Shown here piece by piece: positions 2,226 to 27,705 of a stretch of DNA of 45,571 nt; position 1 is the stretch's first letter, and every line of letters starts with the position of its first letter. The stretch covers positions 1 to 45,571 of the forward strand of contig JBAQCS010000037.1 of assembly GCA_049294415.1 (NCBI GenBank), in the 5' to 3' direction. The notes below the pieces were generated by a model, which did no database searches, had not been told where the DNA came from, and saw only the letters and a list, made by a program, of their open reading frames with translations. A program made the translations under genes and the position numbers. Source of the stretch: Patescibacteria group bacterium (GTDB lineage Bacteria > Patescibacteriota > Patescibacteriia > Patescibacteriales > UBA12465).

Positions 2226-3059
2226 ATGAAATTAATTGATGGCCGCCAAATAGCCGAAACAATCAAAGACACCATTGCTCAAGAAATTTTTGAGTTAGTT
2301 AAAGATGGGGTTAACCGTCCTAGTTTAGCTATTATTTTAGTTGGCGAGCGACCAGATTCACAGCTTTATGTTTCTCTTAAGGAAAAACAAGCTAAATTAA
2401 TTGGCATTGATACTCATCGTTATGAATTTTCGGAAGACACTAGTGAAGATGAACTTATAGCTACTATTAATTTTTTAAATAATGATCCAGAGGTAGATGC
2501 TATTTTAGTTCAGTTGCCATTACCTAGTCAGATTGATACCGATAAAATCATGGGACAACTTAATCCGTTAAAAGATGCGGATGGTTTTCATCCTAATCAT
2601 CCTGATTACGTGGAATCTCCAGTTATTGCTGCAGTGGGTGCCATGCTTGATGATATTAAAATCAAACCAGCTAATTTAAGTGCTTGCGCTTTGTATAATT
2701 CAGAAGTTTTTGGTTCAGCTTTAACTAGTTACTTAACTAAATATGGTTTTAGAGAAGTAGATGGTGTAACTAGTAGTGAAATTAGAAATAACTGGCCAAC
2801 TTTGCAAAATGCTGATGTTTTAGTTAGTGCTATTGGCTTTCCTTTATTTGTTAATGAGGAAATGATTAAACATGGTTCAGTGATTATTGATATTGGTACT
2901 AATAAATTAGAAAATAAAGTAGTTGGTGATGTTAATTTTGAAAGCGTTAAGGATAAAGTTTCTTATATTTCGCCAGTACCTGGTGGTGTGGGGCCACTCA
3001 CGATAGCTTTCCTATTCAAAAATGTTTTAGAAATATATAAACATAAAAACCTTTCCTAA
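2226..3059 (+). CDS. folD: bifunctional methylenetetrahydrofolate dehydrogenase/cyclohydrolase
   Basis: MKLIDGRQIA start, YVSLKEKQAK, KDADGFHP, PVPGGVGPLT. I chose the ATG at 2226 rather than the track start 2193, which overlaps the glyA end. The NADP-loop region is divergent (NSEVFGS instead of GRSxxVG). Confidence 0.85.
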   Translation: MKLIDGRQIAETIKDTIAQEIFELVKDGVNRPSLAIILVGERPDSQLYVSLKEKQAKLIGIDTHRYEFSEDTSEDELIATINFLNNDPEVDAILVQLPLPSQIDTDKIMGQLNPLKDADGFHPNHPDYVESPVIAAVGAMLDDIKIKPANLSACALYNSEVFGSALTSYLTKYGFREVDGVTSSEIRNNWPTLQNADVLVSAIGFPLFVNEEMIKHGSVIIDIGTNKLENKVVGDVNFESVKDKVSYISPVPGGVGPLTIAFLFKNVLEIYKHKNLS

Positions 3060-3083
3060 TCAGAAAGGTAGTTTTTTAAATAA

Positions 3084-4865: not shown

Positions 4866-4867
4866 AT

Positions 4868-5548
4868 ATGAAAGAACAACAAGTAGAAAAATTACTAAAA
4901 GTTGTTAAAGATAACTATCAAGAAATTGCTGGTGATTTTGATGAGACTCGTAAAAAACCAATTTGGCCAGAACTTCTTAAGAGAGTGACTGAAGTAAAAG
5001 ATGGTAATAGCGTTTTGGATGTAGGTTGTGGCAATGGACGATTACTTGAAGCTCTTAAAGATAAAAAGATAAATTATTTAGGCATTGATAATAGTGAAAA
5101 TTTAATTGCCTTGGCTCAAAAAAATTATCCAGATAATAAATTTTTTGTTGGCAATATTTTAGACCTTGATGAATTAAAGGAAAAATATAATTTCGTAATT
5201 TCTGTGGCAGTCTTACATCATTTACCTAGCTTTAAATTACGTCAGCATGCACTCTTAGAAATGCTTAATACTACTAAAGATAACGGTTCAGTTATTTTTA
5301 GTGTGTGGCGTTTGTGGAATAATAAAAAATATCGCCCACTACTATTACAAAATATTTGGAAGAAAATAACGGGACGTTATGATTTAGAAATTGGTGATTT
5401 ATTGTTTCATTGGAAGAAAGGAAATAGTCAAAGATATTACCACGCTTTTACTAAGAGAGAATTAAGAAAACTAGTCAGGACGGCTGGTTATAAAAATTTT
5501 GAATTAATAACCGAGCAATTTAATTATTGGGTAATTATTAAAAAATAA
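4868..5548 (+). CDS. class I SAM-dependent methyltransferase (possibly Trm9-like)
   Basis: Motif I is VLDVGCGNGRLL. The C-terminal DLLFHW...QRYYHAFTKRELRKL resembles the Trm9/ALKBH8-MT block as I remember it. The family-level call needs an HMM check. Confidence 0.8.
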   Translation: MKEQQVEKLLKVVKDNYQEIAGDFDETRKKPIWPELLKRVTEVKDGNSVLDVGCGNGRLLEALKDKKINYLGIDNSENLIALAQKNYPDNKFFVGNILDLDELKEKYNFVISVAVLHHLPSFKLRQHALLEMLNTTKDNGSVIFSVWRLWNNKKYRPLLLQNIWKKITGRYDLEIGDLLFHWKKGNSQRYYHAFTKRELRKLVRTAGYKNFELITEQFNYWVIIKK

Positions 5549-5557
5549 GCTCAACTC

Positions 5558-5587
5558 TTGACACCCCGAGGGGGTATAGTATATAAT
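5558..5587 (+). promoter_or_regulatory. promoter with embedded GC-rich palindromic operator
   Basis: TTGACA (5558-5563), 18-nt spacer, TATAAT (5582-5587). The spacer is occupied by ACACCCCGAGGGGGTAT (5561-5577), an inverted C4/G4 repeat. The ATG at 5596 lies only 8 nt after the -10 element, so the mRNA is nearly leaderless. Confidence 0.6.
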
Positions 5588-5595
5588 AGCTGTAT

Positions 5596-5826
5596 ATGAA
5601 AACACCCGAACAAAGAATTAATATTTTAATTGGACAACTGGAGTCAATTAAAATTAAATTAGGAGATAAAAAAACTGAATGTGGCGCTTTGATGATTCAG
5701 TTAAAAGCTGTTAAATCAGGCCTGTCTTCTTTAATGGAAGAGGTTTTATCCTCAGAATTTGAGTGTTGTTTAAAAAGCGGTCAAAAAGAAAAAATAAAAA
5801 ATATTTTTAAAGAAATAATTAAATAA
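5596..5826 (+). CDS. CsoR/RcnR/FrmR/CstR-family (DUF156) metal- or thiol-sensing transcriptional repressor
   Basis: 76 aa, all-helical. RINILIGQLESI start; Cys29 and Cys58 are 29 residues apart, as in family members; position 54 (the Cu-ligand His position) is Glu. Confidence 0.65.
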   Translation: MKTPEQRINILIGQLESIKIKLGDKKTECGALMIQLKAVKSGLSSLMEEVLSSEFECCLKSGQKEKIKNIFKEIIK

Positions 5827-5841
5827 TTAAATAATAAATTT

Positions 5842-6174
5842 ATGTCACAAGCAATGGATGTAAATAACTCCAACTTCGAACAAGAAGTTTTAAAGAGTGA
5901 AATACCTGTTTTAGTAGATTTTTGGGCTCCTTGGTGTATGCCTTGCCGTATGATGGCTCCAACTTTAGACGCCTTGGCAGTTGATTTAGCTGGTAAGCTA
6001 AAAATAGTTAAGGTTAATACTGAAGAAAGCGATAACCAAGCCTTAGCTATGAAATATCAAATTCAAAGCATCCCTAATATGAAACTATTTAAGGGTGGTG
6101 AAGTAATCGGTGAGTTCATCGGCTTAAGAGATAAAGAAACTTTAAGAGCTGATGTTGACGCTTTAATTAAATAA
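5842..6174 (+). CDS. trxA: thioredoxin
   Basis: 110 aa. VLVDFWAPWCMPCRMMAP; the active site is CMPC instead of the usual CGPC. Also IQSIPNMKLFKGGE. Confidence 0.9.
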   Translation: MSQAMDVNNSNFEQEVLKSEIPVLVDFWAPWCMPCRMMAPTLDALAVDLAGKLKIVKVNTEESDNQALAMKYQIQSIPNMKLFKGGEVIGEFIGLRDKETLRADVDALIK

Positions 6175-6186
6175 GCTTCAAATATA

Positions 6187-6220
6187 GAAAAAAGCGGGCA
6201 TTTGCATGTCCGCTTTTTAT
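6187..6220. terminator. bidirectional rho-independent terminator
   Basis: A-run, then GCGGGCAT/ATGTCCGC hairpin (6194-6213), then T-run. It sits between convergent trxA and 6228..6854. Confidence 0.7.
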
Positions 6221-6227
6221 TTTGGTC

Positions 6228-6854
6228 TTAGTTGTTAAGACCAGTAATACTGTCCAATATTTTTTCTGCTTTTTTAAGCTCAGATGAACTTAATTCCTTG
6301 GTGTCTTTAACTAGTTCATCGCTGAAGTCACCTGCTAACAAAAGTAATGACTTATTACTTTTGGCGTTAGCAATGATAAATTCTTCTAATCTTTTAGCCT
6401 TTTGCTGATAATCAGGTTCATCTAGCATAATGGATAGTAATACAGATTCCATTAAGAGTTTGGCCCAATGTAAAGAACTTATTCGGTTAGCAGCCGTAGA
6501 AAACAATTCCATTAATAATCTTTTTTTATGAAAATCGGAAATAGAATTTTCTAATTCATAAATAAAGTTAGCCAGTTGAGTAAAAGATGCTTCTTCAATT
6601 AAACTTTCATAATAACTTTTAATGTTTTTTCTGAAAGCCGCGATGTAAGCGATAGGAATTTGAGCAATTAATTCCGGTGTTAGTTGGTTGTTTCCAGCTA
6701 AGGCTTGAAAGAGTTTAATAATTGCCTCGTTTTCAAGAAAATTGATTTCCATTTTTCTTTTCTGTTTTAACAGAACAACAATTAAACAAAACATTGCTAA
6801 GGATAAAACGCTTAACAGTATTAAACCCCAGTTGTTAATTATTAGTTTTTCCAT
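6228..6854 (-). CDS. hypothetical N-terminally membrane-anchored helical protein
   Basis: One N-terminal TM (WGLILLSVLSLAMFCLIVVLL). Distant paralog of 6867..7508, sharing the block W-x-x-LL...(D/E)P-x-D...K..E.I.F.I..A. Confidence 0.6.
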   Translation of the reverse strand: MEKLIINNWGLILLSVLSLAMFCLIVVLLKQKRKMEINFLENEAIIKLFQALAGNNQLTPELIAQIPIAYIAAFRKNIKSYYESLIEEASFTQLANFIYELENSISDFHKKRLLMELFSTAANRISSLHWAKLLMESVLLSIMLDEPDYQQKAKRLEEFIIANAKSNKSLLLLAGDFSDELVKDTKELSSSELKKAEKILDSITGLNN

Positions 6855-6866
6855 GGTTGTTATTTT

Positions 6867-7508
6867 TTATTCTAACTGAGAAAGTGAATTATTAATTCTT
6901 AACATGGCAATTTCAATTTTGTTTTTCCAGCCTTCATTAAAGTGGTCGGATAGAAGTATTCGTCTAATTTTTCCTTCAAATAATTGACTTAACTCCAGAC
7001 CGAGTTCTTGTTGTTCGGCTATAGTAATTACAAAGCCTATTACTTCAGCTGTTTTGTCTAAATCAGCAGGATCTTGGGCGACGGTTTCAGCTATAATAGC
7101 TTGAGTTAAAAGATTGCCCCAGACTTCGATTTTAATTTCTTCGGCTGCCTGATAGAGTAAAGACATTAAATAGTCTCGGCGATCGGAAATAACCACGGCT
7201 CTGATTTGTAAAAGATGATCACCCAGGGTAACGGCTTTTAGTTTGTTAAAACAAATGAAATAATGCTGAACAATAGTTCGTCTAATTTCTTTAATAACTT
7301 CCAGAGGCGTGATGTTAAAGATGTTAACATCGAAGGTTTCTGACTTTTGACTTTGCTCCAGCATAGCTGTTAACAAATTTGTTTTACTGGTTTCATTGTA
7401 AACAATTTTCCGGATACGTTTCACTTTAAGTTTAAAGATAGTGATAACTGCGATTTCAGCTAGAGCGAGTAATACAAAAATAATTACAATTGTTGTAGTT
7501 GTTGGCAT
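6867..7508 (-). CDS. hypothetical N-terminally membrane-anchored helical protein (paralog of 6228..6854)
   Basis: N-terminal TM (IVIIFVLLALAEIAVITIF), same length class and same C-terminal block as its neighbour. An upstream TTGACA-17-TAGTAT promoter is present on the minus strand. Confidence 0.6.
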   Translation of the reverse strand: MPTTTTIVIIFVLLALAEIAVITIFKLKVKRIRKIVYNETSKTNLLTAMLEQSQKSETFDVNIFNITPLEVIKEIRRTIVQHYFICFNKLKAVTLGDHLLQIRAVVISDRRDYLMSLLYQAAEEIKIEVWGNLLTQAIIAETVAQDPADLDKTAEVIGFVITIAEQQELGLELSQLFEGKIRRILLSDHFNEGWKNKIEIAMLRINNSLSQLE

Positions 7509-7596
7509 GATTTTTTAGTTTTTAAGGTTCGTATTATTAACTGTTGATACTAACATTAAATAAAATAAATGTCAATGCTTATATAAACTAGAATAT

Positions 7597-7629
7597 AAAA
7601 AAACAGGACCCGTTAAGGTCCTGTTTTTA
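7597..7629. terminator. rho-independent terminator (serves 7646..8644)
   Basis: ACAGGACC (7603-7610) pairs with GGTCCTGT (7617-7624), flanked by A- and T-runs. Confidence 0.7.
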
Positions 7630-7645
7630 AAGTGTCTAAGTTCGA

Positions 7646-8644
7646 TTATTGAGCACAACCAGCGGCTGCGGCTCCACCAGTAGCAGCACCTTCACCAAAT
7701 CCAGCAGCTGGAGTAGCTGAAGAAAGAGATGTTTCACATTCTTTTGGTTGATTATTAAAGGCTGCACAAATAGTCTTTAATAAGCTAGCACTATCACGAC
7801 CAGATTGAGCCTCTGTACCGTTGATAATTAAAGTTGGAGAACCACCTACACTGTATTTAGTATTATCTTCTTTTTGAACATTGAATCCAGGGAAAGTACC
7901 ACGGAAATCTTTGTTGTTTTTGAAGTTATCTAGAACACTGTAAGTTTTGTCTGTTTTAGCAACACAAGCAGCTAATTTGTCTGTATCAACATTAGCTTCA
8001 TTAAGACAAGTAGCACTTTGAGTCTCATCTTTTAAGAAACAAGTTAAATATTTAGCATATTTAGCATTTTGTTCTTTTTGAACACAATATTGAGTTAAAC
8101 TTTCTTTAAGTTCTTTTTCACCATGCATAGCATAGTCATTAAACTTAATAGAGAAATTAATTTTATTTCCTAAAGCAGCAACTACAGGTAAGATACCTTT
8201 TTCCATTTGAGTACCGTATGGGCAATGAGTCATTACGAATAATTCAACAACTGGTTTATCAGTCTTAGGTAAATTTTCTGGAGTAGCTGGAGTATTAGCA
8301 GCTTGATCGCCGCCAGCAGCAGCTTCAGTTGATTCACCGGTCTTCATAGCTTGAGGGAAGAATAATTTACCATCAAGAGTAGCGTATGATTCAACTTTTT
8401 GGTCACTACCAATATTTACCATTACTTTATAAAGACCATTTTCTTTAGTAACGCTGTCAATTTTAGCAGTAGCGCCAGGAGCCATTAAATTAGCGTTGAT
8501 ATAGTTTTCAAGGACAGTTTTAACAGCCTCAGGTTTTAGATTACCTTTGCCTTTGAATAAAAGAGTAGCCCCTAGAGCAATAAGGATAATAGCGACAAGC
8601 GCAATTGAACCAAAAATAATTTGCTTCTTCATTTTTTGTTTCAT
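7646..8644 (-). CDS. secreted or membrane-anchored thioredoxin-fold (DsbA-like) protein
   Basis: N-terminal TM/signal anchor. ELFVMTHCPYGTQ resembles a thioredoxin-fold active-site region, but as monothiol CPYG. Several further Cys pairs and a Gly/Ala-rich C-terminus. Confidence 0.45.
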   Translation of the reverse strand: MKQKMKKQIIFGSIALVAIILIALGATLLFKGKGNLKPEAVKTVLENYINANLMAPGATAKIDSVTKENGLYKVMVNIGSDQKVESYATLDGKLFFPQAMKTGESTEAAAGGDQAANTPATPENLPKTDKPVVELFVMTHCPYGTQMEKGILPVVAALGNKINFSIKFNDYAMHGEKELKESLTQYCVQKEQNAKYAKYLTCFLKDETQSATCLNEANVDTDKLAACVAKTDKTYSVLDNFKNNKDFRGTFPGFNVQKEDNTKYSVGGSPTLIINGTEAQSGRDSASLLKTICAAFNNQPKECETSLSSATPAAGFGEGAATGGAAAAGCAQ

Positions 8645-8730
8645 AATTTTTTAAATTAATTTTTTATAATCTTTGTCTATTATAGCTGAAAATAAAGTAG
8701 TCGTCAAAAGAAAATAACGGATTTAAACCG

Positions 8731-9501
8731 TTATTTTAGCTTATTTAAAAAGTCGTCTAATTCCTTCGGTAATTCAATAGTATACAATTGTTTATTACCG
8801 TCTAAATCCTTAAAACCTAGTTCTTTGGAAACTAAGAATAAACGGTTTAAGCCAGACTTCTCGTTGCGTACCTTAGTCTTTTTAGTAAAATATAAGGGGT
8901 CGCCAAGTAAAGGACAGCCATAAGCAAACATATGAACTCTAATTTGGTGAGTACGACCAGTTTTAATTTTAACTTCTAATAAAGTGTAATTAACAAAACG
9001 TTTTAGTACTTCAAAATTAGTAATAGCTTCCTTGGATTGATCTTGGGCTTTTAAAATACCACGGTCGCGGTTACCAATTTTATTTTTATCAGTGATGGTA
9101 TCTGAGACACTAGGCAAAGCTGCCATTTTATAACCATCGCGAGATCTTCTAATTGGAAAATTAATAACATCTTCTTCTTTACTAATTTTACCGTGAGCTA
9201 AAGCAATATATTTTTTAGTAACGCGTCTAGCTTGAAATTGTTTTTTTAGATATTCAAAAGCTTTGTTATGTTTAGCCACTACCATCAAGCCACATGCTTC
9301 TTTATCAAGACGATGAACTAACCCAGGACGTAATGGGTCATCACCAACTTTCTCAATTTTAGGATATTTCTTTTTTAACCAATCAACTAAGGTTTCCTCT
9401 TCGATAGTAGGTCCTCCATGAGAAATTAAACCAGCCGGCTTATTAAGCACTAGATAATCATCATTCTCAAAAACAATAGTCGGCTCCAATTCTTTAGTCA
9501 T
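8731..9501 (-). CDS. RluA-family pseudouridine synthase (no S4 domain)
   Basis: HRLDKEACGLMVVAK (catalytic Asp block), GRTHQIRVHM. Confidence 0.88.
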   Translation of the reverse strand: MTKELEPTIVFENDDYLVLNKPAGLISHGGPTIEEETLVDWLKKKYPKIEKVGDDPLRPGLVHRLDKEACGLMVVAKHNKAFEYLKKQFQARRVTKKYIALAHGKISKEEDVINFPIRRSRDGYKMAALPSVSDTITDKNKIGNRDRGILKAQDQSKEAITNFEVLKRFVNYTLLEVKIKTGRTHQIRVHMFAYGCPLLGDPLYFTKKTKVRNEKSGLNRLFLVSKELGFKDLDGNKQLYTIELPKELDDFLNKLK

Positions 9502-9502
9502 A

Positions 9503-10954
9503 TTATTTTTTGTTTAATAAGATTTGTAAGTCGTTTTTAGTAATGCCTTTTAGTAGATATAGTATAGCAAAATATATGATACCCGATAAGGCTATGCCAA
9601 CCAGCAGCCAGGACCAATTATAAAAGTAATGGGAAGGTATTAAATATAAGAATAAACCCATTAAAACAGAGGCTATAATTGACTTGGACACTATTTTAAA
9701 ACTAGGAATAAATTTAGTTTGACGCCAGACTACATAGGCTGATAATAAGGCAATAACTAATTCACTATAAACAGTAGCTGAGGCGGCTCCAAGGTAAGAA
9801 AATTTTGGAATAAGTATTAGATATAATAAGACTGAGCTGATACTAACAAATAGATAATATTTAATCATCTTTTTTTGCTGGTCAATTGCCACTACGGCGT
9901 GAGCAAACATGCAACCTAGAAAAATAGCCAGAATCGCAAAAATTAAAATTTTTAAAATTAAACCACTAGGCGCGAATTCAGCTCCAGCGACTAATACGAC
10001 AATTGGCCTGGCTAGAATTAAAGCCCCGGCAATAATTGGTAGTGACATCAGTGCCATTAAATCAAAAGATTTTTGGAGGGTGATATAGAATAAATCTTTT
10101 TTTTGTTCGAACCAGTAAGCTGTTAAGAGTGGTAGAATAATGCCCGCAAACATAAAAGGTAAAGTGCTAAGTACATCAATAATGCGATAAGCAGCACCAT
10201 ATAAACCAACCTCAGACGGACTTTTAACAAGTGATAAGATTAAAGTATCAGTTTTTAAATATAGTAAATTAAGCACAATCGTAATCGCTAGTGGCCAACT
10301 TTTTTTGATAGTGTCTCCCCAGATTTTTTTATCAAAGCTTGGTCTTAAACCAATAAATTTTAAAGCTAATAAATAACTGATTAAAAAATTAGCAGCTGCA
10401 CTGATAACGCTGGCCCATAAAATACCATTCAAACCATAGTTAAATTTAATTGATAAATAAATACCGACAATTAAAATTACGCGGCTGACATTTTCAGCTA
10501 TCACAGCTTTATCCATTCTTAATTTCTTTTGAAAGAGGCCGATTAAAACTTGGCTTAAAGATGGAAATAAAAAAGAACTGGCGGCAATTAAAATACCAGT
10601 TTTAACAGCTAAGGAATAAGGTAAAAATAAAGCCACTAGTGGTGCTAGCCCAATAAATAAAATAATAGAGACTAGTCTTAAACCGAATAAATTATTAAGA
10701 ACTTTTTTTTCATCAACGCCCGGGATACTAATCATTTGAACTGTTACTAAAGTAAGACCTAGATCAGCGATGATAGCAAAGAAAGATAAAAAATTAATAA
10801 CAGCTGTATATTCTCCGAAGCCAGCGCGTCCTAAATATCTAGTCATCATGGCTAGTGAAATAAGACCAAGAGCGGTAGATAAAAATTTACCAACTAATTG
10901 AATGATTGTATTGTGAGCAATTTTAGAAGAGAGTGACATTGGTTTGTGTTTCAA
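9503..10954 (-). CDS. MOP-superfamily flippase (Wzx/MurJ-like polysaccharide or lipid-linked oligosaccharide exporter)
   Basis: 483 aa, about 12-14 predicted TM helices. The N-terminal SSKIAHNTIIQLVGKFLS pattern is typical of polysaccharide biosynthesis flippases. Confidence 0.6.
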   Translation of the reverse strand: MKHKPMSLSSKIAHNTIIQLVGKFLSTALGLISLAMMTRYLGRAGFGEYTAVINFLSFFAIIADLGLTLVTVQMISIPGVDEKKVLNNLFGLRLVSIILFIGLAPLVALFLPYSLAVKTGILIAASSFLFPSLSQVLIGLFQKKLRMDKAVIAENVSRVILIVGIYLSIKFNYGLNGILWASVISAAANFLISYLLALKFIGLRPSFDKKIWGDTIKKSWPLAITIVLNLLYLKTDTLILSLVKSPSEVGLYGAAYRIIDVLSTLPFMFAGIILPLLTAYWFEQKKDLFYITLQKSFDLMALMSLPIIAGALILARPIVVLVAGAEFAPSGLILKILIFAILAIFLGCMFAHAVVAIDQQKKMIKYYLFVSISSVLLYLILIPKFSYLGAASATVYSELVIALLSAYVVWRQTKFIPSFKIVSKSIIASVLMGLFLYLIPSHYFYNWSWLLVGIALSGIIYFAILYLLKGITKNDLQILLNKK

Positions 10955-19388: not shown

Positions 19389-19765
19389 GGGGATGTCGGG
19401 CTTCGATAGCGAGACTTTCCTTAAACGTGCAAAACGCGGTGAACTACACGCGTAAAACTGGTTCGAAAAACAAATGCAAACAAATCTGCAGCATTCGCTT
19501 GGTTAGTTCCAAGCTATGCACCTGTTGCCGCTTAAATTGCCGCAACCATCGAACTAGCGACGTCTTATAGCTAGCACTCGGTGTCATTAATAAGACTAGG
19601 GTCCTTGGGTAGCTTTCCTCGAGTCTCCGAAAACAATGAAAGATATAGGTTAATTGCTTTTCTTTTCAGTTTTGATGATTAACCTGAACAAAATAAACTG
19701 GAATATTTTTGTAGAAGCGTTTAAAGGTAACTTGTTACACATGGGTTCAACTCCCATCATCTCCA
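19389..19765 (+). ncRNA. ssrA: transfer-messenger RNA (tmRNA)
   Basis: The 5' GGGGAUG pairs with 3' CAUCUCC (includes the G3:U pair), followed by discriminator A. T-arm GGGUUCAACUCCC. Internal tag ORF GCA AAC AAA ... GCC GCU UAA (19476-19535) encodes ANKSAAFAWLVPSYAPVAA. CCA is not encoded. Confidence 0.9.
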
Positions 19766-19790
19766 CATTTATTTTTTTAAATAAATACCA

Positions 19791-19874
19791 GCCGCGGTGG
19801 CGGAACTGGTAGACGCGCTGGACTTAAAATCCTGTTATGGCGACATAGTGCGGGTTCGATTCCCGCCCGCGGCA
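19791..19874 (+). tRNA. tRNA-Leu (anticodon UAA)
   Basis: Acceptor GCCGCGG/CCGCGGC, anticodon loop CUUAAAA, long variable arm (UAUG-GCGA-CAUA), T-arm GCGGG-UUCGAUU-CCCGC. CCA is not encoded. Confidence 0.9.
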
Positions 19875-19944
19875 CATTAAATTTTAGTGTGAAAGTTGGT
19901 ATTGATTAAGAAATAAATATTTGCTATATAATATATAGCAATTT

Positions 19945-20016
19945 GCGGGTATCGTATAATGGTTATTATGCAACCTTGCCATGGTTGAGAAAGGGGTCCG
20001 ATTCCCCTTACCCGCT
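19945..20016 (+). tRNA. tRNA-Gly (anticodon GCC), with an atypical T-loop
   Basis: Acceptor GCGGGUA/UACCCGC, anticodon arm CAACC-UUGCCAU-GGUUG, T-arm AGGGG-UCCGAUU-CCCCU (C at position 55), weak AU-rich D-stem. Confidence 0.75.
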
Positions 20017-20023
20017 CAGAGAA

Positions 20024-20062
20024 CACAAAAGAAGTTCCATTTTTGGAGCTTCTTTTTGTTTT
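20024..20062 (+). terminator. strong rho-independent terminator after the tRNA cluster
   Basis: ACAAAAGAAGTTCCA-TTTT-TGGAGCTTCTTTTTGT, a long stem with one mismatch and one bulge, followed by TTTTG. Confidence 0.75.
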
Positions 20063-20139
20063 GGGGGAAAATTTACTGTCTTGCTAAGGTGTTTAGTGGG
20101 GTATAAACTTAGAATAATTGATAGATTTGCTTTAAAAAT

Positions 20140-21726
20140 ATGACTAATGAAGAATGTAAAGCTGGCAGAGAAGTTGATGTAAACAAAATTGTAACATCAA
20201 AACATCCAAAAAAAATTGTGGTAGCCGGTCCAGGAACGGGCAAGAGTTTTTTATTTCAGAAACTTATTAAAGAAAAGAAAAAAGAGGGAAAAAGTAATTT
20301 TCTGGCGATTACATTCATTGGTAAATTAGGTGATAATCTTGCAGATGATCTTTGTGGGTTAGCTGATACTTATACGATGCATGGTTTTGCGCGTAAACTT
20401 ATAAACAAATTGTTGGGGTGGTGGTACTACCCAAATATTTATCAAATAATTGAAGAAGATTTAAAGAAAGATGGCGTTACCGATTTTGCTATAGGGGATA
20501 AAAATTATTTATCAAAGTCTAAATTTTATAAGACAGCTGGTCATGCCGATGTAATACATTATGTCGTGGAGGTAATGAAAAATGATAATTCAAAAATTCC
20601 AATATTCGACTTAATTTTAGTAGATGAATTTCAAGATTTTAATAAAGAGGAGGCTGAGTTAATTGATTTGTTAGCTTTAAAAAATGAGGTTGTTGTCGCG
20701 GGAGACGATGACCAAGCTCTGTATAGATTCAAAGGATCTTCACCAGATTTTATCAGGGACAAATATAGTGACTCCAACACCGACTTCGAAAGTCATACGT
20801 TAAGGTTTTGTTCTAGATGTACGGAAATAATAATGAAATATTTTAATGCGATAGTAGAAAAATACAATCTGAATGATCCTGCTAAATCAAGAATAAACAA
20901 AGAGTATATTTGTTATTTACCAGATAAAACTGAAGATTCAGAAAAAAATAAATTTATACACTTAATCCAAAACTGCCCCTCAGGAATGGCAGCCTATAAG
21001 ATTCAGAAGAAGTTAGAGACAATGATAGGTGATCAGAAAGTAAAAGACGTTCTGATTATTGGTGAAGGTAGATCGTGTAAAGCTAATTTATTAATGATAG
21101 CTAATCAGCTTAAAAGATATGGATTTAAAAATGTTGATTATAATGATGATAACGGATTATTGAGTTTTAATTCCGGAACTATTGATGCATATAAATTTTT
21201 AAGTCAGAATGAAGAATCTGAAATTGGATGGAGGCTATTAGGTGATCCTGCTGATAAAGAAGAGAGAAAACAGCATATAAAAAACGCTAAAAATCTTAAA
21301 ATTATAATATCTGGAACTTCGTCACAGATATCTGGAATAGGCGAAAAGGGATTTCAAAATTTAGAAAAAAATATAGGCAGTGATTTAACGCCTGATAATC
21401 AAATAAAAAGAGAGCTTTTGATAAGAGAGTTAAAAGATACTAATAGCTCATTGCCAAGACCTTTATGTAATTTAAATATAACTGTGTGCAATATTTTAAA
21501 TTCAAAAGGGCTTGGCGCTGATGTTGTTTTTTTAATTGGTTTTGATAAAAAAAGATTTCCAAGTACCCCCGCTCCTACTGACGATGAAATATACCAAATG
21601 TTAGTAGCAATTACTAGAGCCAAAAAACGATTATATTTGATAAATTCTTCGGATAAAGATGTTTCTGATTTTATAGGTTGCTTAGATGCATCGGATGTAC
21701 GTGCGGAAAAAATAAAATATAAATAA
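20140..21726 (+). CDS. UvrD/Rep-like superfamily-1 helicase (no fused nuclease domain)
   Basis: Walker A VVAGPGTGKS (K35), ITFIGKLG, motif II LILVDEFQDFN, motif III VAGDDDQALYRFKGS, C-terminal KGLGADVVFLIG and YQMLVAITRAKKRLYL. Confidence 0.85.
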   Translation: MTNEECKAGREVDVNKIVTSKHPKKIVVAGPGTGKSFLFQKLIKEKKKEGKSNFLAITFIGKLGDNLADDLCGLADTYTMHGFARKLINKLLGWWYYPNIYQIIEEDLKKDGVTDFAIGDKNYLSKSKFYKTAGHADVIHYVVEVMKNDNSKIPIFDLILVDEFQDFNKEEAELIDLLALKNEVVVAGDDDQALYRFKGSSPDFIRDKYSDSNTDFESHTLRFCSRCTEIIMKYFNAIVEKYNLNDPAKSRINKEYICYLPDKTEDSEKNKFIHLIQNCPSGMAAYKIQKKLETMIGDQKVKDVLIIGEGRSCKANLLMIANQLKRYGFKNVDYNDDNGLLSFNSGTIDAYKFLSQNEESEIGWRLLGDPADKEERKQHIKNAKNLKIIISGTSSQISGIGEKGFQNLEKNIGSDLTPDNQIKRELLIRELKDTNSSLPRPLCNLNITVCNILNSKGLGADVVFLIGFDKKRFPSTPAPTDDEIYQMLVAITRAKKRLYLINSSDKDVSDFIGCLDASDVRAEKIKYK

Positions 21727-21727
21727 T

Positions 21728-22165
21728 ATGGCAAATACAAAAATATTATCTCAATTAATCGAACCTTATATAAGAGAGTGTCTAAGCCAAAAAATGGGGT
21801 TAGATTTCTATGCTCGGGATACTGAGCTAGTGCTAAATACTGGAGGAAAGCATAAATTTGATATCGTTTCATTAGATAAAAGTATTATTGGGGATATTAA
21901 ATCCCACCAAACTAGAGAGAATGGTAATGTGGGGATAGGAGTAAGAAAATCCGTTTATTTTGATATATATATGTTGTCTTTGGTTGAAGCAAAACAAAAA
22001 ATGTTAATTTTAACAGATAAGGATTTTTATAAATTCTTCAAAAGAATATCATCAGGGAAAGTTCCTTCTGATGTTGAAATTTTATTAATGGAATTACCAG
22101 CTGATATAAAATTGGAAGCAAAAAAAGTTCATGATTTAGCTAGTAGAGAAATAGGAAAAAGATAA
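21728..22165 (+). CDS. small PD-(D/E)xK-like nuclease candidate (145 aa)
   Basis: The ATG is 1 nt after the helicase stop. E17 ... KHKFD45IVSLDKSIIGD56IK58S matches the E...D-x(10)-D-x-K restriction-endonuclease-fold core, arranged like Hjc/NucS. Confidence 0.5.
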   Translation: MANTKILSQLIEPYIRECLSQKMGLDFYARDTELVLNTGGKHKFDIVSLDKSIIGDIKSHQTRENGNVGIGVRKSVYFDIYMLSLVEAKQKMLILTDKDFYKFFKRISSGKVPSDVEILLMELPADIKLEAKKVHDLASREIGKR

Positions 22166-22441
22166 CGTAGTAATGTGAATTTTAGTCAACTAATAATAAA
22201 TTGGTGCATCAAGATATTTAAGTAAGATTATTTTTCTAAAAAATTACTATACCATTGCTAATAGCTATATTCATCGCCGTTGGTTAACTAGGATAATTTA
22301 ATAGTATCTGATAATATATGAAGCCCTTTATTTATTGGTTTTTTTTGTGTTTTAGTGATATTTGCACAAAATTAGGAGCTTTCAAATAATATAAAACTAA
22401 GCTACAATAGAATTATAATATAATGAAAATCCTGAGTAATT

Positions 22442-23278
22442 ATGCAGAAAAATACCCAAAAAAAGAGGGTGGAGCCGTTTTTGAAGTGGGCTGGAGGTAA
22501 ATCCCAATTATTAGAACAATTTAAACCATTGTTTCCTAAAGAAGGAACTTATAAAAGATACATCGAGCCGTTTATTGGTGGAGGTGCTGTCTTTTTTTAT
22601 TTGGAGCCAAAAGAGGCTATTATATCTGATTTAAATAAAGATTTAATTGAAGCTTATAAAGTAGTTAAAAGTCATCCTAAAGAACTTGTAGAATTATTAA
22701 AAAAATACGAAAAAAAACATAACAAAGAATTTTATTTAAAAATTAGAGAGGAATACAATGCCGATAAATTAGACAAAATAAATAAAGCTGCTCATTTAAT
22801 ATATTTAAATAAAGCTTGTTTTAATGGTCTTTACAGGGTTAATAGTAAAGGTGGCTTTAATGTTCCATTTGGTCAGCATAAAAAGTTTTCTGTTAATGAA
22901 GCTGGAATATTGGCAACTAGTAAAATATTAAAAAAAACTAAAATAGAACACACTGATTTTACACAGGTTTTAAAAAATGCCAAGAAAGGAGACTTTATTT
23001 ATTTTGATCCACCATACTATCCATTAAATACTGGCTCAAATTTTACTACTTACACCAAGGAAAGTTTTTTAGAAAAAGAACAGGAAAAATTGATGAAAAC
23101 TTTTGAGAAGCTTGATGCCCGAGGGTGTATACTTATGTTAAGTAATTCGGACACTCCTTTTATTAGAAAGCTGTATAAGAAGTGGTATATTACAAAAGTA
23201 AGTGCTAAACGTTTTATAAATTGTATGGCCGAAAAAAGAGGAGATGTATTTGAAGTTGTAGTAAGAAACTATAAGTAA
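22442..23278 (+). CDS. dam: Dam-type (alpha class, DpnM-like) N6-adenine DNA methyltransferase, probably GATC
   Basis: PFLKWAGGKSQLL, EPFIGGGAVFF (motif I), FIYFDPPYYP (motif IV). Confidence 0.92.
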   Translation: MQKNTQKKRVEPFLKWAGGKSQLLEQFKPLFPKEGTYKRYIEPFIGGGAVFFYLEPKEAIISDLNKDLIEAYKVVKSHPKELVELLKKYEKKHNKEFYLKIREEYNADKLDKINKAAHLIYLNKACFNGLYRVNSKGGFNVPFGQHKKFSVNEAGILATSKILKKTKIEHTDFTQVLKNAKKGDFIYFDPPYYPLNTGSNFTTYTKESFLEKEQEKLMKTFEKLDARGCILMLSNSDTPFIRKLYKKWYITKVSAKRFINCMAEKRGDVFEVVVRNYK

Positions 23279-23281
23279 TAT

Positions 23282-24061
23282 ATGTGTTTATATAAAAAGC
23301 AAAAAAACTTTGCTCTTTATCATGGTGATTGTCTGGAAGAATTAAAAAGATTCCCAGAGAATTATTTTGATATGATATTTGCTGATCCGCCATACTTTTT
23401 GTCGGGTGGTAGTTTTAGTTGTCAAAATGGAAAAATGGTTAGTGTTAAAAAAGGAGAGTGGGATTTAAGTAATGGTTTCCAAAAAGATTTTAATTTTCAT
23501 CTGGAGTGGATTAAAGAATGTCGTCGAGTATTAAAACCTCACGGCACAATTTGGGTTAGTGGAACTTATCACTCTATATATCAGTGTGGTTTTATTTTAC
23601 AAAATACCAAATATCATATTTTAAATGATATTTCTTGGTTTAAACCAAATGCTGCCCCTAATTTGAGTTGCCGCTTTTTTACTGCTAGTCACGAAACTTT
23701 AATTTGGGCGAGAAAAGAAAAAAAAGCCAAACATATTTTTAATTATCAAGATATAAAAGAAGGTGCTTGGTCAGAAGATGAGTTTAAAAAACCGCACATG
23801 CAGATGCGTTCGGTCTGGTCTATGGGTACACCTAAAAAAGAAGAAAAAGTATTTGGTAAACATCCAACTCAGAAACCTTTAGATTTACTAAAGAGAATAA
23901 TTTTAGCTAGTACCAAAGAGGGTGATATAGTGCTTGATCCTTTTACGGGCAGTTCGACTACTGGTGTGGCGGCTAATTTACATAAAAGAAAATTTGTTGG
24001 CATAGATTCCGATAAAAATTATTTAGATCTTTCCCTGCAAAGATTAAAAGTATTAGCGTAA
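23282..24061 (+). CDS. beta-class N6/N4 DNA methyltransferase, DpnA-like second methylase
   Basis: Motif IV (IFADPPYF) precedes motif I (LDPFTGSSTTGVAA). Size and position match DpnA of the DpnII cassette. Confidence 0.88.
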   Translation: MCLYKKQKNFALYHGDCLEELKRFPENYFDMIFADPPYFLSGGSFSCQNGKMVSVKKGEWDLSNGFQKDFNFHLEWIKECRRVLKPHGTIWVSGTYHSIYQCGFILQNTKYHILNDISWFKPNAAPNLSCRFFTASHETLIWARKEKKAKHIFNYQDIKEGAWSEDEFKKPHMQMRSVWSMGTPKKEEKVFGKHPTQKPLDLLKRIILASTKEGDIVLDPFTGSSTTGVAANLHKRKFVGIDSDKNYLDLSLQRLKVLA

Positions 24062-24067
24062 AAAAAT

Positions 24068-24622
24068 ATGTCAGAAGCTTTACCTAAAATGGAATTTAAG
24101 AGAAAAGAAGTGACCGTTTTTCCTTTAGCAGTTTTTCCGGCTAACAGCCATTTTCTTATTGGTATTTATCAAGGGTCTTTAAGTAAACATGATATTTTAA
24201 TAAAGTATAGACAAAAAAATAATGAAAAGTGGTCTAGAATAAGAACCCCAAAACATATACATTGGGCTGTCGATATTATGATAAAAATGCACTCAGATCC
24301 TAAAACAACAAAGTTATTTTTAGATTTTCTGTTAAATATTTGGGAGAATACCGCAGGAATAGAAAACAATAGTGATAGAAGGAAAATTTTAAATATAAAA
24401 AATTTGTTAGAATCTAACAGCAAGGAAATATCCGAATACTATAAATTAAGTAACCAAGGCGAATATAGCATCAATTTTTTAGTTTTATTAGCAAGGCTTT
24501 TAATGGTCCAAGAGAAGACAAATCTTAAAACTGCATATATGTTTAAAAAATTGCTTGAAAAATTAAGAAAAAATGAAGATATTTTTTCTATAGTTTCAAC
24601 TGCTACACATAATGGTAAATAA
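24068..24622 (+). CDS. hypothetical protein inserted in the DpnII-type cassette (184 aa)
   Basis: Clean ORF, 6 nt after the methylase stop and 5 nt before the endonuclease start. No motif recognised. Confidence 0.6.
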   Translation: MSEALPKMEFKRKEVTVFPLAVFPANSHFLIGIYQGSLSKHDILIKYRQKNNEKWSRIRTPKHIHWAVDIMIKMHSDPKTTKLFLDFLLNIWENTAGIENNSDRRKILNIKNLLESNSKEISEYYKLSNQGEYSINFLVLLARLLMVQEKTNLKTAYMFKKLLEKLRKNEDIFSIVSTATHNGK

Positions 24623-24627
24623 AAAAT

Positions 24628-25545
24628 ATGAAATTTATTAAATTCTATCAAGAAGCTCTGGGATGTAAAAATGAAGATGAAGTTTTTACTTATTTTCTAA
24701 ATAATTTAAAACCAAGTAATATGCTTTGGTCTTATTTTGTTAATTGGGAAAAAGTTTTTGAAAATACTAGTAAAATAGAATTAGCCTTAAATAGTTTAAA
24801 TTATTTAATTGGTAAGGATGATTTTGATAAAGCATTTAAATTTTTAGTTAAAGAAAACCCAGAAATTATTAAAGTAATTCCAGCCCTAGTTGTTCGTGAT
24901 GGTAGTAAAAGTACTAAATTTAAAATTTTAGTTGATTATACAAAGAAAAAATTAGTCTACGAAGATTACGACTTTTCTAAAAAAGAAATAACCGATAAAG
25001 ATATAGATAATTATTTATTATTTGTAAAAGAAACAGGCCTAAAGGATTTAATTATTTCTCAAAAGATTAAAAATCTTGTTGATTACATGATTGGAGTAGA
25101 AGCTGGTTTGGATAGTAATGGCCGAAAAAATAGAGGAGGACACTCGATGGAAGATATTGTTGGTTTTTTTATTGCTGATATTTGTAAAACTAAAGATTAT
25201 AAATATCTAAAAGAAGCCACATCTGAAAAAATAAAAGTTGAATGGGGTTTTGATGTGCCGGTTGATAAATCATCTCGTCGTTATGATTACGTTATTAATA
25301 CTGGTAAAGAGCTAGTTATTTTTGAAACTAACTTTTATGGCGGTGGAGGCTCAAAATTAAAATCAACCGCTGGGGAATATAGAGATTTATTTAATGTTTT
25401 AAATAGTAAGTATAAATTTGTTTGGATTACTGATGGTAAGGGGTGGATTGGCACATCTAGGCCGTTAAGAGAAACCTTTAATCATAATGATTATATTTTT
25501 AGCCTAGATATGATTGAAAAAGGTATTCTGGGTGAAATTTTGTAA
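24628..25545 (+). CDS. DpnII/MboI-family type II restriction endonuclease (GATC)
   Basis: LVDYMIGVEAGLDSNGRKNRGGHSMEDIV, RYDYVI, ETNFYGGGGSKLKS, WITDGKGW and LRETF match the conserved blocks of DpnII as I remember them. Confidence 0.9.
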   Translation: MKFIKFYQEALGCKNEDEVFTYFLNNLKPSNMLWSYFVNWEKVFENTSKIELALNSLNYLIGKDDFDKAFKFLVKENPEIIKVIPALVVRDGSKSTKFKILVDYTKKKLVYEDYDFSKKEITDKDIDNYLLFVKETGLKDLIISQKIKNLVDYMIGVEAGLDSNGRKNRGGHSMEDIVGFFIADICKTKDYKYLKEATSEKIKVEWGFDVPVDKSSRRYDYVINTGKELVIFETNFYGGGGSKLKSTAGEYRDLFNVLNSKYKFVWITDGKGWIGTSRPLRETFNHNDYIFSLDMIEKGILGEIL

Positions 25546-25643: not shown

Positions 25644-26411
25644 ATGTCTGTAAAAAAAATAAAAATTTTACTTATTTTTCTCATCGGTGCTTTTATTTTA
25701 GTCCCAGATGTTTTTGCGTCTTCTAATAACGATCAGATAATAGAAGAATTGAATAAAAACATTAACTTTGTTATTGAGGAAAACTCAAAACTAAAAAGCG
25801 ACATTAATTTTATAAAAAATAATCAACAGGATTACGAAAATAAGTTAGATTTAATAACTTCTAATCAATTAAATGTATCGACAGCGAATGAGAAATTATT
25901 AGAAGCTATTAACACAAAGAACGAGGGGGTAGATTTTAAAGAAAAATATTGGGACATACTATTAAATCATGTAAAAATATATGGAGCCTTGTTTCTTCTA
26001 ATTGCCATTGGTCTTGGTATTTATAGAGCCGGAGAAGTAAGGAGTGCTAAGGAAGATTTTGATAAATTTATAGATCGTGGAAATGAAGATCTTGCAAGAA
26101 TTATTAAAAAGCAGGAGAGTGATTTTAGTGAAATTAAGGATAAATTTATTGTCGAAATTGATGAAGTTAAAAACCAATATGCTGCGAAACTTGCAGATAA
26201 GATTGATTCTTTGAAGATTGAGGCGTCGCAGATTGCAACGAGAGACATAATTGATGGAATTTCAAAAAAATTATTAGACTATGTTTACAATCAGCCAGGT
26301 TATGATGAAACTAAAATTAAAGAAATAAAGGAAATTATGAATGGACTTGCTTTGTCGGAACCAATTGATGATAATTTTGATTTTAAGGGTAAAGACCCTA
26401 GAAAGGATTAG
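25644..26411 (+). CDS. hypothetical coiled-coil membrane protein (signal anchor plus one central TM)
   Basis: N-terminal ILLIFLIGAFILVPDVFASS and central TM IYGALFLLIAIGLGIY. Both flanking segments are heptad-like and rich in K/E/N/I. Confidence 0.6.
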   Translation: MSVKKIKILLIFLIGAFILVPDVFASSNNDQIIEELNKNINFVIEENSKLKSDINFIKNNQQDYENKLDLITSNQLNVSTANEKLLEAINTKNEGVDFKEKYWDILLNHVKIYGALFLLIAIGLGIYRAGEVRSAKEDFDKFIDRGNEDLARIIKKQESDFSEIKDKFIVEIDEVKNQYAAKLADKIDSLKIEASQIATRDIIDGISKKLLDYVYNQPGYDETKIKEIKEIMNGLALSEPIDDNFDFKGKDPRKD

Positions 26412-26418
26412 ATTTTCT

Positions 26419-27705
26419 ATGAAAAAAATAAATATTTTAAAAAACAATTCAATATCTAGTAATACATTTACGGCAAATATTAATTTTTTTGATTTGCAAA
26501 AAATAGCCAGATTAACCGTTAGAGATGATGATAACAAAGAAGATTCATATCAAAGAAGAATTGATCCGGAAAGAACAAAAAAAATAGTTAAATATATTGA
26601 GAAGAGTTTATTTACTGAAGATGAGGATAGATTAATGGACAAAAGTGATATTGTATCTTTATTCCCATCTTCAATAATAATAGCGTTTGATTCAGAAATA
26701 ATTGAAGACGAAGATGATCAAAATTTTGATAATTTAACTATATACAAAAACGGAGATAATTATGAACTCTTAATTCCAGAAAAGATTGATAATAAGCCAG
26801 CATTAATTGTTGACGGTCAACATCGATATGCTGGTGTTAATTATTTTTTTGAAAAATATTCGAATTTAAGAAATTTGGTAACCATTGAATTTCCAGTAAC
26901 TATTTTATTAAATTATGATTTTTATCAGCAATCAGGGGTTTTTGCTAATGTTAATTTTAATCAAAAACAGGTTAATAGATCTCTTTACTATGATATTTTT
27001 GGAGAAATGCCAGAAGATAAAAATGATATAACATTTGTTCATTTTTTATCTAAATATTTAAACAATGAAAATGATAGCCCATTTAAAGGAATGATTAAGA
27101 TGCTTGGTGATGAAAAATTTGGCATAATAACTCAGTCATTTATTTCGGAGTGTATAACGCCTTTAGTTAGAAAAAATGGTATTTTTTATAAATATTTTTG
27201 CGAATATAAGGATGGCAACAGCGGTAAAGAGTCATTTAATTTTGTTCTTAATTGTATAAAAGAATTTTTTAATATAATAAAAGATAATTTTCCCGATCTA
27301 GTCCCAAAGAAAAATATTATAGGCTATTATGTAAGACAAGAATATAAAAGTATAGTCTTTAAAACAACTGGAATAGGAGCGCTTTTCAAGTTGCTAAATT
27401 ATGTTGGCATTGATAATCAATTAAATGAAGTGTATATAAAATACTTAAAGGAGGAAAATATTTTTAATGATCCTGCTTATTATCAAGGTGCTGGCAAGGG
27501 GATGCAAGACAAATTGTTTAAAAGAATTAAAAATATTATTGACTATAAAAAAGATATTATTGGTAAAGAGTTTAATAATTCAATAATAGATGATATTAGA
27601 TTAAAAGACGTCGATGGAAGATTAATGAATGAGATTTTTATGAGAAATGGTACAAAAACATTAATTAATGATATTGAGTTAGAAGAAATAAGAAAGTTAT
27701 TTTAA
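26419..27705 (+). CDS. DGQHR-domain (DndB / ParB-like) protein
   Basis: YQRRIDPERTKKIVKYI, ALIVDGQHRYAGVNYF and FANVNFNQKQVNRSLYYDIF are the DndB-family signature blocks. I chose the ATG at 26419 (MKKINILKNN); the track start 26341 overlaps the previous gene. Confidence 0.8.
   Translation: MKKINILKNNSISSNTFTANINFFDLQKIARLTVRDDDNKEDSYQRRIDPERTKKIVKYIEKSLFTEDEDRLMDKSDIVSLFPSSIIIAFDSEIIEDEDDQNFDNLTIYKNGDNYELLIPEKIDNKPALIVDGQHRYAGVNYFFEKYSNLRNLVTIEFPVTILLNYDFYQQSGVFANVNFNQKQVNRSLYYDIFGEMPEDKNDITFVHFLSKYLNNENDSPFKGMIKMLGDEKFGIITQSFISECITPLVRKNGIFYKYFCEYKDGNSGKESFNFVLNCIKEFFNIIKDNFPDLVPKKNIIGYYVRQEYKSIVFKTTGIGALFKLLNYVGIDNQLNEVYIKYLKEENIFNDPAYYQGAGKGMQDKLFKRIKNIIDYKKDIIGKEFNNSIIDDIRLKDVDGRLMNEIFMRNGTKTLINDIELEEIRKLF

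Follow-up and report, generated by a model that had tools for sequence, protein, structure and literature searches.

The stretch of DNA analysed here, called the window throughout, comprises 45,571 nucleotides (nt) of contig JBAQCS010000037.1 from a Patescibacteria group bacterium (assembly GCA_049294415.1). Between positions 20140 and 22165 it carries two adjacent genes, encoding a UvrD-like superfamily 1 (SF1) helicase of 528 amino acids (aa) and a small protein of 145 aa, which an earlier reading of the letters alone (the original prediction) had proposed as a helicase-nuclease defence module. The coordinates and the start-stop coupling given there are exact (Table 1): the ATG of the small gene lies 1 nt past the helicase stop, the junction reads TAA-T-ATG, and the two genes occupy different reading frames. 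Judging from their relatives, both open reading frames (ORFs) are real genes and not chance ORFs, because the helicase has 917 homologs (E<=1e-10) and the small protein is represented by 428 clusters.

The helicase has a complete set of SF1 motifs and no fused domain, as originally described. GPGTGKS (with K35), LVDEFQDFN, AGDDDQALYRFKGS, GLGADVVF and VAITRAKKRLYL are all found in the translation, and the marks of SF1A membership, namely Walker A, a DExx motif II, a GDxxQ motif III and motif VI (VA(L/I)TRAK), follow one another in order. An alignment with 24 homologs (52-80% identity) shows no variation in any of the helicase motifs. Pfam recognizes UvrD-helicase (1.9e-21), AAA_19 (1.6e-15) and UvrD_C (9.5e-10) and no further domain, including no nuclease or TOPRIM domain anywhere in the 528 residues. 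The protein is a complete SF1A UvrD-like enzyme without a fused nuclease. Helicase residues ~215-430 have no Pfam match yet are conserved within the family. In addition, the cysteines C224 and C227 (a CSRC motif), C258, C313 and C450 are invariant in the same 24 homologs and fall in the Pfam-unmatched region (residues 224-450, window ~20809-21489); they may form a metal-binding insertion in the 1B/2B region, which would be unusual among UvrD-like helicases.

The nearest sequences in the PDB are UvrD, PcrA and Rep, at only 1e-12 to 1e-14, and the NCBIfam scores for AddA and RecB are far under their cut-offs. The best matches in a defence database are partial: the GajB models of PADLOC reach 93 bits in three fragments (PDLC00132), while PDLC00122 matches the full length at 74 bits, and the true GajB of locus L001 scores 379 bits compared to the 93 bits of the window helicase. 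The helicase is a member of a GajB-like but distinct clade, which is associated with restriction-modification (RM).

This association emerges from the surroundings of helicase relatives, among them 80 genome loci obtained by a scan of genome contigs with the helicase. At 46-62% identity, the gene is found between hsdM and hsdS/hsdR (L011, L012, L013, L015 and L022), directly 5' of a Sau3AI-like restriction endonuclease (REase; L021, PADLOC REase_II 1.1e-89), or adjoining an integrase and a large methyltransferase (MTase; L014); in L099 the gene has HsdR and a ParB-MTase in its vicinity, and in the viral contig L100 ORFs of HsdM-like type. HsdM/S-type neighbours occur in 13 of the 80 loci and HsdR-type neighbours in 10, the other neighbours being highly variable. 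Among relatives at ~30-34% identity the overlapping 3' gene is often a nuclease: PDDEXK_1/Cas4-like proteins of ~257 aa in L033, L053 and L059, DUF2779 proteins in L042 and L068 (and within 4 kb in L015, L022 and L063), Cas4+RNase_H_2 in L031, a 201-aa Mrr_cat REase in L060 and GmrSD in L063. DUF2779 consists of a Cas4-like PD-(D/E)xK region and an RNase H-like 3'-5' exonuclease (PMC3985635, PMC13621843). Defence genes embedded in type I RM operons have been documented and used as a discovery principle (PMC11411939; bioRxiv 10.1101/2024.01.29.577857); the word 'UvrD' is absent from the guilt-by-embedding preprint (bioRxiv 10.1101/2024.01.29.577857), and no description of this helicase clade as an embedded defence gene was found in the literature. 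The clade lives almost exclusively in RM and defence surroundings and is often nested within operons of type I RM systems.

The small protein has no match in Pfam, PADLOC, NCBIfam, PHROGs or the PDB (the last searched with phmmer and with a profile built from 92 sequences), and none of the 92 family members has a Pfam domain. A word-indexed search returned seven relatives, and an exhaustive profile search yielded 428 cluster representatives (E<=1e-3), of which 180 pass E<=1e-10; almost all are stand-alone proteins of ~145 aa. A metagenome scan with the close subfamily added no contigs beyond those already found. An AlphaFold 2 (AF2) model from 8 sequences was unusable (predicted local distance difference test, pLDDT, 45), hence the model used is that of the 92-sequence alignment, with a pLDDT of 94.3 and a predicted template modelling score (pTM) of 0.87. 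It consists of a helix, three strands, a helix, a strand, a helix, a strand and a helix (H4-23, E32-35, E41-48, E53-58, H70-84 and E90-95 among them), and contains the core alpha-beta-beta-beta-alpha-beta fold of the PD-(D/E)xK superfamily. The Foldseek matches in the PDB, all with weak scores, are almost exclusively REase-fold proteins, among them AF1548, a TseT-TsiT complex chain, the nuclease domains of Can2/Card1, and further McrC, R2 RLE (restriction-like endonuclease), RecE, MUS81 and MGME1. Among the viral models of BFVD, the matches are annotated as 'Restriction endonuclease', PD-(D/E)XK nuclease, YqaJ and endonuclease I. The REase fold suggested originally is accepted on the basis of this model, and nuclease activity is putative.

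The proposed catalytic residues fared less uniformly. E17, D45, D56 and K58 are all present in the small ORF, and E12, D45, D56 and K58 are invariant in the close 8-member subfamily. Across the family (n=92), D45 stands (82 members), together with E12 (80), S48 (84), D50 (79), D/E79 (82), T96 (89) and E141 (88), whereas D56 is not conserved and K58 occurs in 46 of the 92. The D56/K58 pair is a subfamily feature, since the family-wide pattern differs: there the acids are placed on helix 1 (E12), strand 2 (D45) and helix 2 (D/E79), which we take to resemble the migrated-acid variants of the fold, such as the Cfr10I-type enzymes. The residue pattern could represent either a migrated-acid variant or an inactive form.

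The two genes travel together as a discrete mobile two-gene cassette of 2.1 kb, which is found in three contexts. Besides the window, the pair recurs in two unrelated short metagenomic contigs, and the DNA homology is restricted to the pair: L010 matches window positions 20103-22183 at 82% nt identity, and L091 matches 20113-22160 at 77%. All three cassettes show exact stop/start coupling, with TAA, 1 nt and ATG in the window and L010, and a 2-nt spacing in L091. The helicases of the window and L010 are 87% identical in protein (83-93% in DNA), whereas the small genes are 63% identical in protein (67-75% in DNA), and the break falls at the gene boundary; the window and L091, in comparison, show a uniform 77-81% DNA identity across the pair. 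The step between the window and L010 indicates that the pair has been retained through the exchange of one member's allele by recombination. In L091 (2411-3280), the gene right behind a helicase of 80% identity encodes the small protein with an HNH nuclease domain attached at its C-terminus (P0301, 289 aa; HNH signature DH...N...CxxC...H). One further copy of the helicase subclade, in L099 (7001-8579, 79% nt identity), is without the small gene; the homology stops exactly at window position 21731 and an unrelated 183-aa ORF comes next. This sole small-less copy is frameshifted into pieces of 470 and 73 aa. The 183-aa protein was considered as a diverged member of the small family and was rejected (hhalign probability 0.07%).

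The insertion site is a genuine variable defence hotspot, in keeping with the defence-island context named originally. Trigger factor and SmpB genes lie upstream in the same block as the transfer-messenger RNA (tmRNA) and tRNA cluster, directly before the cassette. Up to position 20119 the window agrees with a sister contig, L003, at 96% identity, and from 22361 on it agrees again at 94.6%. The interval in between measures 2.24 kb in the window, where it holds the helicase and the small gene, and 7.2 kb in L003. The L003 block (2967-10183) encodes a 385-aa protein and a copy of the small gene with 65% identity, besides a SMODS/CBASS-like four-gene block and two further unknown genes, and because this sister genome carries other cargo at the same place, the slot from the tmRNA/tRNA-Gly to DpnII is regarded as a strain-variable defence hotspot. 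The claim of an AT-rich island next to an RM system is borne out as regards the DpnII-type RM cassette that adjoins the pair, whereas the AT-richness is modest: the GC content is 0.30 in the pair and 0.28-0.29 at 22.4-28.4 kb, as compared to 0.35 in the upstream 19 kb and 0.33 in the whole window.

Table 1. Features of the locus and its flanks (window positions unless a contig is named).
Feature	Position	Strand	Basis or remark
tmRNA (19389-19766), tRNA-Leu(taa) and, at the end of the RNA cluster, tRNA-Gly(gcc) (19945-20017); conserved left flank of the hotspot	19389-20017	+	ARAGORN
Terminator-like hairpin between the RNA genes and the cassette	20027-20056	+	Consensus scan only; 13-pair stem and T run
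Left boundary of the mobile helicase cassette, with its 5' leader	20103-20139	+	Start and end points of DNA homology; onset at 20103 (L010), 20113 (L091), 20116 (L099)
SF1A UvrD-like helicase, 528 aa	20140-21726	+	ORF list, Pfam, PADLOC
Small protein with REase-like fold, 145 aa	21728-22165	+	ORF list; AF2 and Foldseek
Degenerate 5' remnant of the 171-aa gene	22167-22240	+	DNA alignment with L001 and L007
Right-hand hotspot flank: DpnII-type RM cassette preceded by its own promoter-like region (hexamers at 22361-22408)	22361-25545	+	Pfam, PADLOC, L003 alignment; hexamers by consensus scan
Dam-like (D12-class) MTase	22442-23278	+	Pfam, PADLOC
N6_N4 MTase	23282-24061	+	Pfam, PADLOC
184-aa ORF without family match	24068-24622	+	Pfam, PADLOC
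DpnII REase	24628-25545	+	Pfam/PADLOC, 8e-90
Sites of the 65-68-aa/221-aa genes	L006 1105-1945; L091 574-771; L099 6619-6970; L010 10-318; L003 6174-6362

Several further observations concern the surroundings of the cassette. The 184-aa ORF between the second MTase and the DpnII endonuclease is kept in L003 (11891-12445). A classical DpnII cassette has three genes, and this ORF is an extra component relative to it. A DndB/DGQHR-like gene (26341-27705) lies 3' of the RM cassette and prolongs the low-GC island, its Pfam DndB label being taken from the L003 ortholog, and it is preceded by a 255-aa ORF with coiled-coil/transmembrane-like features (25644-26411). A 157-aa antisense ORF (21399-21872, minus strand) covers the junction of the helicase and the small gene; its counterparts in L010 and L091 have just 59-86 aa, and the AT-rich DNA has probably produced it by chance. 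In several contigs, a conserved gene of 65-68 aa and a 221-aa gene or its fragments precede either the helicase cassette or a gene for a protein of 385-388 aa (Table 1), as if these contigs shared the backbone of a mobile element whose cargo slot varies.

Outside the cassette, the small gene keeps very different company. In L001 it lies 3' of a complete Gabija system (GajA 2.5e-208, GajB 4.6e-114) and 5' of a 171-aa gene, in L003 and L006 it stands behind a 385-388-aa protein with a HEPN-like motif, and in L092 a distant family member directly follows, with no gap, an AbiJ_NTD4/PDC-S32 protein. Other distant members stand alone: in a Qat/Schlafen-helicase island (L105), among transposases together with genes for PLD and an MTase (L093), between small hypothetical genes of an Azospirillum plasmid (L098), and among housekeeping genes (L096 and L097). 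In L006 and L007 it begins 8 nt after a tRNA 3' fragment and sits beside a serine-recombinase/Rep element. The fragment (L006 3520-3570, L007 ~910-960) has a variable-arm-like hairpin, a T-arm (GGGGTTCAATTCCCC) and an acceptor strand, and no whole tRNA is called at this place in either contig; it looks like the att remnant of an integrative element, because a serine recombinase and a Rep gene lie nearby in L006. The 428-cluster REase-fold family is unannotated, widespread and very promiscuous in its partners.

HEPN-type features recur beside the small gene (L003 6852-7970, L006 1935-3086, L001 8449-8964 and L092 6137-7000). The 385-388-aa family has an RRNDILHGSK motif and a sub-threshold Pfam match to HEPN_Apea (E=0.029), and the intact 171-aa protein has an RNNLFHGSK motif (Rx4H, HEPN-like); no homology among the 171-aa, 385-aa and 397-aa neighbours is supported past the 9-residue motif. 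An ORF of 155-162 aa is found inside type I RM operons that also contain the helicase (L011 7596-8060, L012 5087-5572), and in L011 it weakly resembles the 171-aa protein near RNNLF (E=0.004 pairwise), with the histidine replaced. For L001, it was considered whether the 349-360-aa helicase and the 171-aa ORF are two parts of a single helicase that the inserted small gene has split; this was rejected, because the former is a short but complete GajB and the latter has no relationship to helicases.

These findings permit the tentative reading, to which we give a probability of about 40%, that the pair is a split helicase-nuclease defence cassette in which both genes act together. It draws on the same junction in three cassettes, with homology ending at the edges of the pair in three different flank contexts, and on the retention of the pair despite a recombinational swap of one member, the HNH fusion of the small protein in L091 and the frameshift of the small-less helicase in L099. 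The REase-like fold, the nuclease genes repeatedly found 3' of helicase relatives and the hotspot site point in the same direction. In such a cassette, the two genes would be co-transcribed and translationally coupled. Like other UvrD-family enzymes, the helicase, once loaded at a DNA end or on single-stranded DNA, would use ATP to unwind or translocate 3'-5', while the small protein, probably a homodimer, would cut the DNA that the helicase exposes. The module would act against invading DNA and may complement the adjacent RM system, and the small protein would be an exchangeable nuclease module, not an obligate co-evolved partner.

Other evidence weighs against such a partnership. The check named originally, whether homologs of the two genes are conserved neighbours across genomes, came out negative: a profile search of all ORFs detected a small-family gene within 6 kb of the helicase relatives at 0 of the 80 genome loci, conserved adjacency across diverse genomes was not observed, and the pair is limited to the window, L010 and L091, whose helicases are at least 79% identical, and so to one narrow clade (at least 77%). 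About 25 of the 80 helicase relatives are without any coupled neighbour, and a 79%-identical copy (L099) is without the small gene. Conversely, in 10 of 13 contexts examined for the small family, something other than the helicase clade lies upstream, and the closest relatives of the small gene (62-72% identity) have other upstream neighbours. The trees of the two proteins are incongruent, and when the nine closest small proteins are placed in a tree, the helicase-linked ones (three) are polyphyletic. Furthermore, the remnant behind the window's small gene, which starts with GTG and runs into a stop after 16 codons, corresponds to the intact 171-aa gene that lies 1 nt past the small-gene stop in L001 and L007; because this stub survives, the small gene of the window either came from a different partnership or once had one. 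Lastly, the Foldseek scores are weak though consistent (E ~1e-4 to 1e-2, best 2e-4 to 2e-3, TM 0.4-0.56), position 56 is mostly S, G, A or N across the 92 family members, and half of these lack K58. A dedicated two-gene defence system is plausible and unproven, because each gene usually occurs without the other; the pairing itself is real but evolutionarily shallow.

About as likely as a joint cassette is the chance juxtaposition of two autonomous defence-island genes, which would be a product of modular shuffling at gene boundaries, inherited in one narrow clade. In that case the helicase would work alone or as an accessory motor of RM systems, and the small protein would have a self-sufficient function and land at the 3' tails of operons. 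The data on the 80 loci and the uncoupled helicases, which show that neither family depends on the other, fit this explanation, as do the incongruent trees, the close helicase relatives between hsdM and hsdS/hsdR without a small gene (L011, L012, L013, L015, L022), and the solitary small genes of L093, L097, L098 and L105 with the unrelated neighbours seen elsewhere. Whichever gene is upstream, the small gene always starts 0-30 nt past its stop, and breakpoints fall exactly at the helicase stop/small ATG (L099) and around the small gene alone (window 21712-22164). Against it stand the identical junction in three cassettes, retained also across an allele swap, and the joint movement of the two genes, at whose outer edges the homology of the flanks stops; moreover, the only small-less copy of the helicase subclade is a pseudogene (L099), and nuclease genes recur 3' of helicase relatives.

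An inert REase-fold module, serving as a DNA-binding or sensor domain, an antitoxin/immunity-like protein or a regulatory partner, is improbable. Its original partners would have been HEPN-type toxins, the window copy being an orphan after loss of the 171-aa gene, and the surviving stub agrees with this, as do the neighbours with an Rx4H HEPN-like motif (R-N-x-x-x-H-G-S-K), which lie downstream (171 aa; L001, L007) or upstream (385-388 aa; L003, L006), and the AbiJ_NTD4 protein in front of the small gene in L092. The (D/E)xK motif is not conserved in the family, with S, G, A or N mostly at position 56 and K58 in 50%, and fusion to a bona fide HNH nuclease (L091) would be expected of a targeting domain. 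Acids are nevertheless conserved where a metal site is expected (E12 in helix 1, D45 in strand 2, D50, and D/E79 in helix 2), all canonical residues are present in the window's own subfamily, and the HEPN label of the neighbours is based on a short motif and the one sub-threshold HEPN_Apea match (E=0.029).

It is very improbable that the small gene is a selfish free-standing homing-type endonuclease, copying itself into intergenic junctions with only an incidental link to the helicase: it does behave as a discrete mobile unit (homology covers the gene and ~10 nt upstream), is inserted directly behind the stops of genes that have nothing in common, is joined in L091 to HNH, which is typical of homing nucleases, and lies beside att-like tRNA fragments and a serine recombinase/Rep element (L006), but searches of 2.9 million viral contigs and of a phage collection gave no relatives, the copies are 62-72% identical and not near-identical as recent homing predicts, and no target-site duplication and no intron or intein context was seen. 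A phage-gene origin of the small protein was likewise rejected, because these viral contigs and the phage collection hold no relative of it.

If the pair does work together, it would be among the smallest helicase-nuclease immune modules known, it would come from poorly studied candidate-phyla bacteria, and a tiny nuclease module would prove swappable between very different defence partners. A broader proposal, which we consider unlikely, holds that the REase-fold family is an undescribed 'plug-in' nuclease effector recruited by the UvrD-like helicase, by AbiJ/HEPN-like proteins and possibly by Gabija, and that the cassette is a new minimal two-gene immune system of Patescibacteria-like bacteria beside RM. 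Whatever the answer, there is an unannotated restriction-fold family of 428 clusters in defence islands and mobile elements, and a UvrD-like helicase clade which, because it is habitually embedded in type I restriction operons, is a defence candidate under 'guilt-by-embedding'. Both the small family and the RM-embedded helicase clade are worthwhile subjects for experimental testing.

PADLOC recognizes no known system at the locus, in line with the original prediction: it reports partial GajB matches only, leaves the small protein unmatched and finds no GajA in the window. Like Gabija, the cassette has a compact UvrD-like SF1 helicase of ~500 aa beside a nuclease-type partner in a defence island, but this partner is a 145-aa REase-fold protein and not GajA, the OLD-family ATPase/TOPRIM nuclease. 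In place of GajA, the helicase has tRNA-Gly upstream and the small ORF downstream; Pfam detected no AAA_15 or OLD_TOPRIM in seven ORFs of the window, and a phmmer search with a true GajA against all window ORFs gave nothing at E<=10. In L001, where Gabija is complete, the small gene is an extra gene behind the system and not part of it. With Hachiman the cassette shares a helicase and a separate PD-(D/E)xK-fold effector in a two-gene operon; however, HamB is an SF2 (DExH) helicase, whereas the window helicase is SF1 and UvrD-like, and the 145-aa protein, which is about half the size of HamA, has no HamA/DUF1837 match at E<=0.1 in Pfam or PADLOC. The cassette thus resembles Gabija and Hachiman in outline and fails the defining features of both.

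Similarly, Nhi, Hna and AddAB-RecBCD combine an SF1 motor with nuclease chemistry against foreign or broken DNA, but they are fused polypeptides or larger multi-domain complexes, whereas here two small separate proteins are encoded, and Pfam finds no RecB-type nuclease domain in the window helicase. Defence genes embedded in type I RM (TgvAB, PrrC) offer another parallel, since the closest cellular relatives of the window helicase sit likewise; the window cassette, in contrast, lies outside the type II (DpnII-type) system and has its own flanks, though it abuts the RM cassette. Split pairs of a UvrD-like helicase and a Cas4/RecB-type nuclease (PDDEXK_1, DUF2779, Cas4+RNase_H_2) contain helicases of the same broad family, at ~30-34% identity, and there too the helicase gene overlaps a downstream PD-(D/E)xK nuclease gene (L033, L053, L059, L042, L068 and L031). 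Their nucleases are Pfam-recognized Cas4/RecB-type proteins of 250-500 aa, whereas the partner in the window has 145 aa and belongs to an unrelated, unannotated family. It is to these split UvrD and Cas4-like pairs of the helicase's own distant relatives that the cassette is closest in logic.

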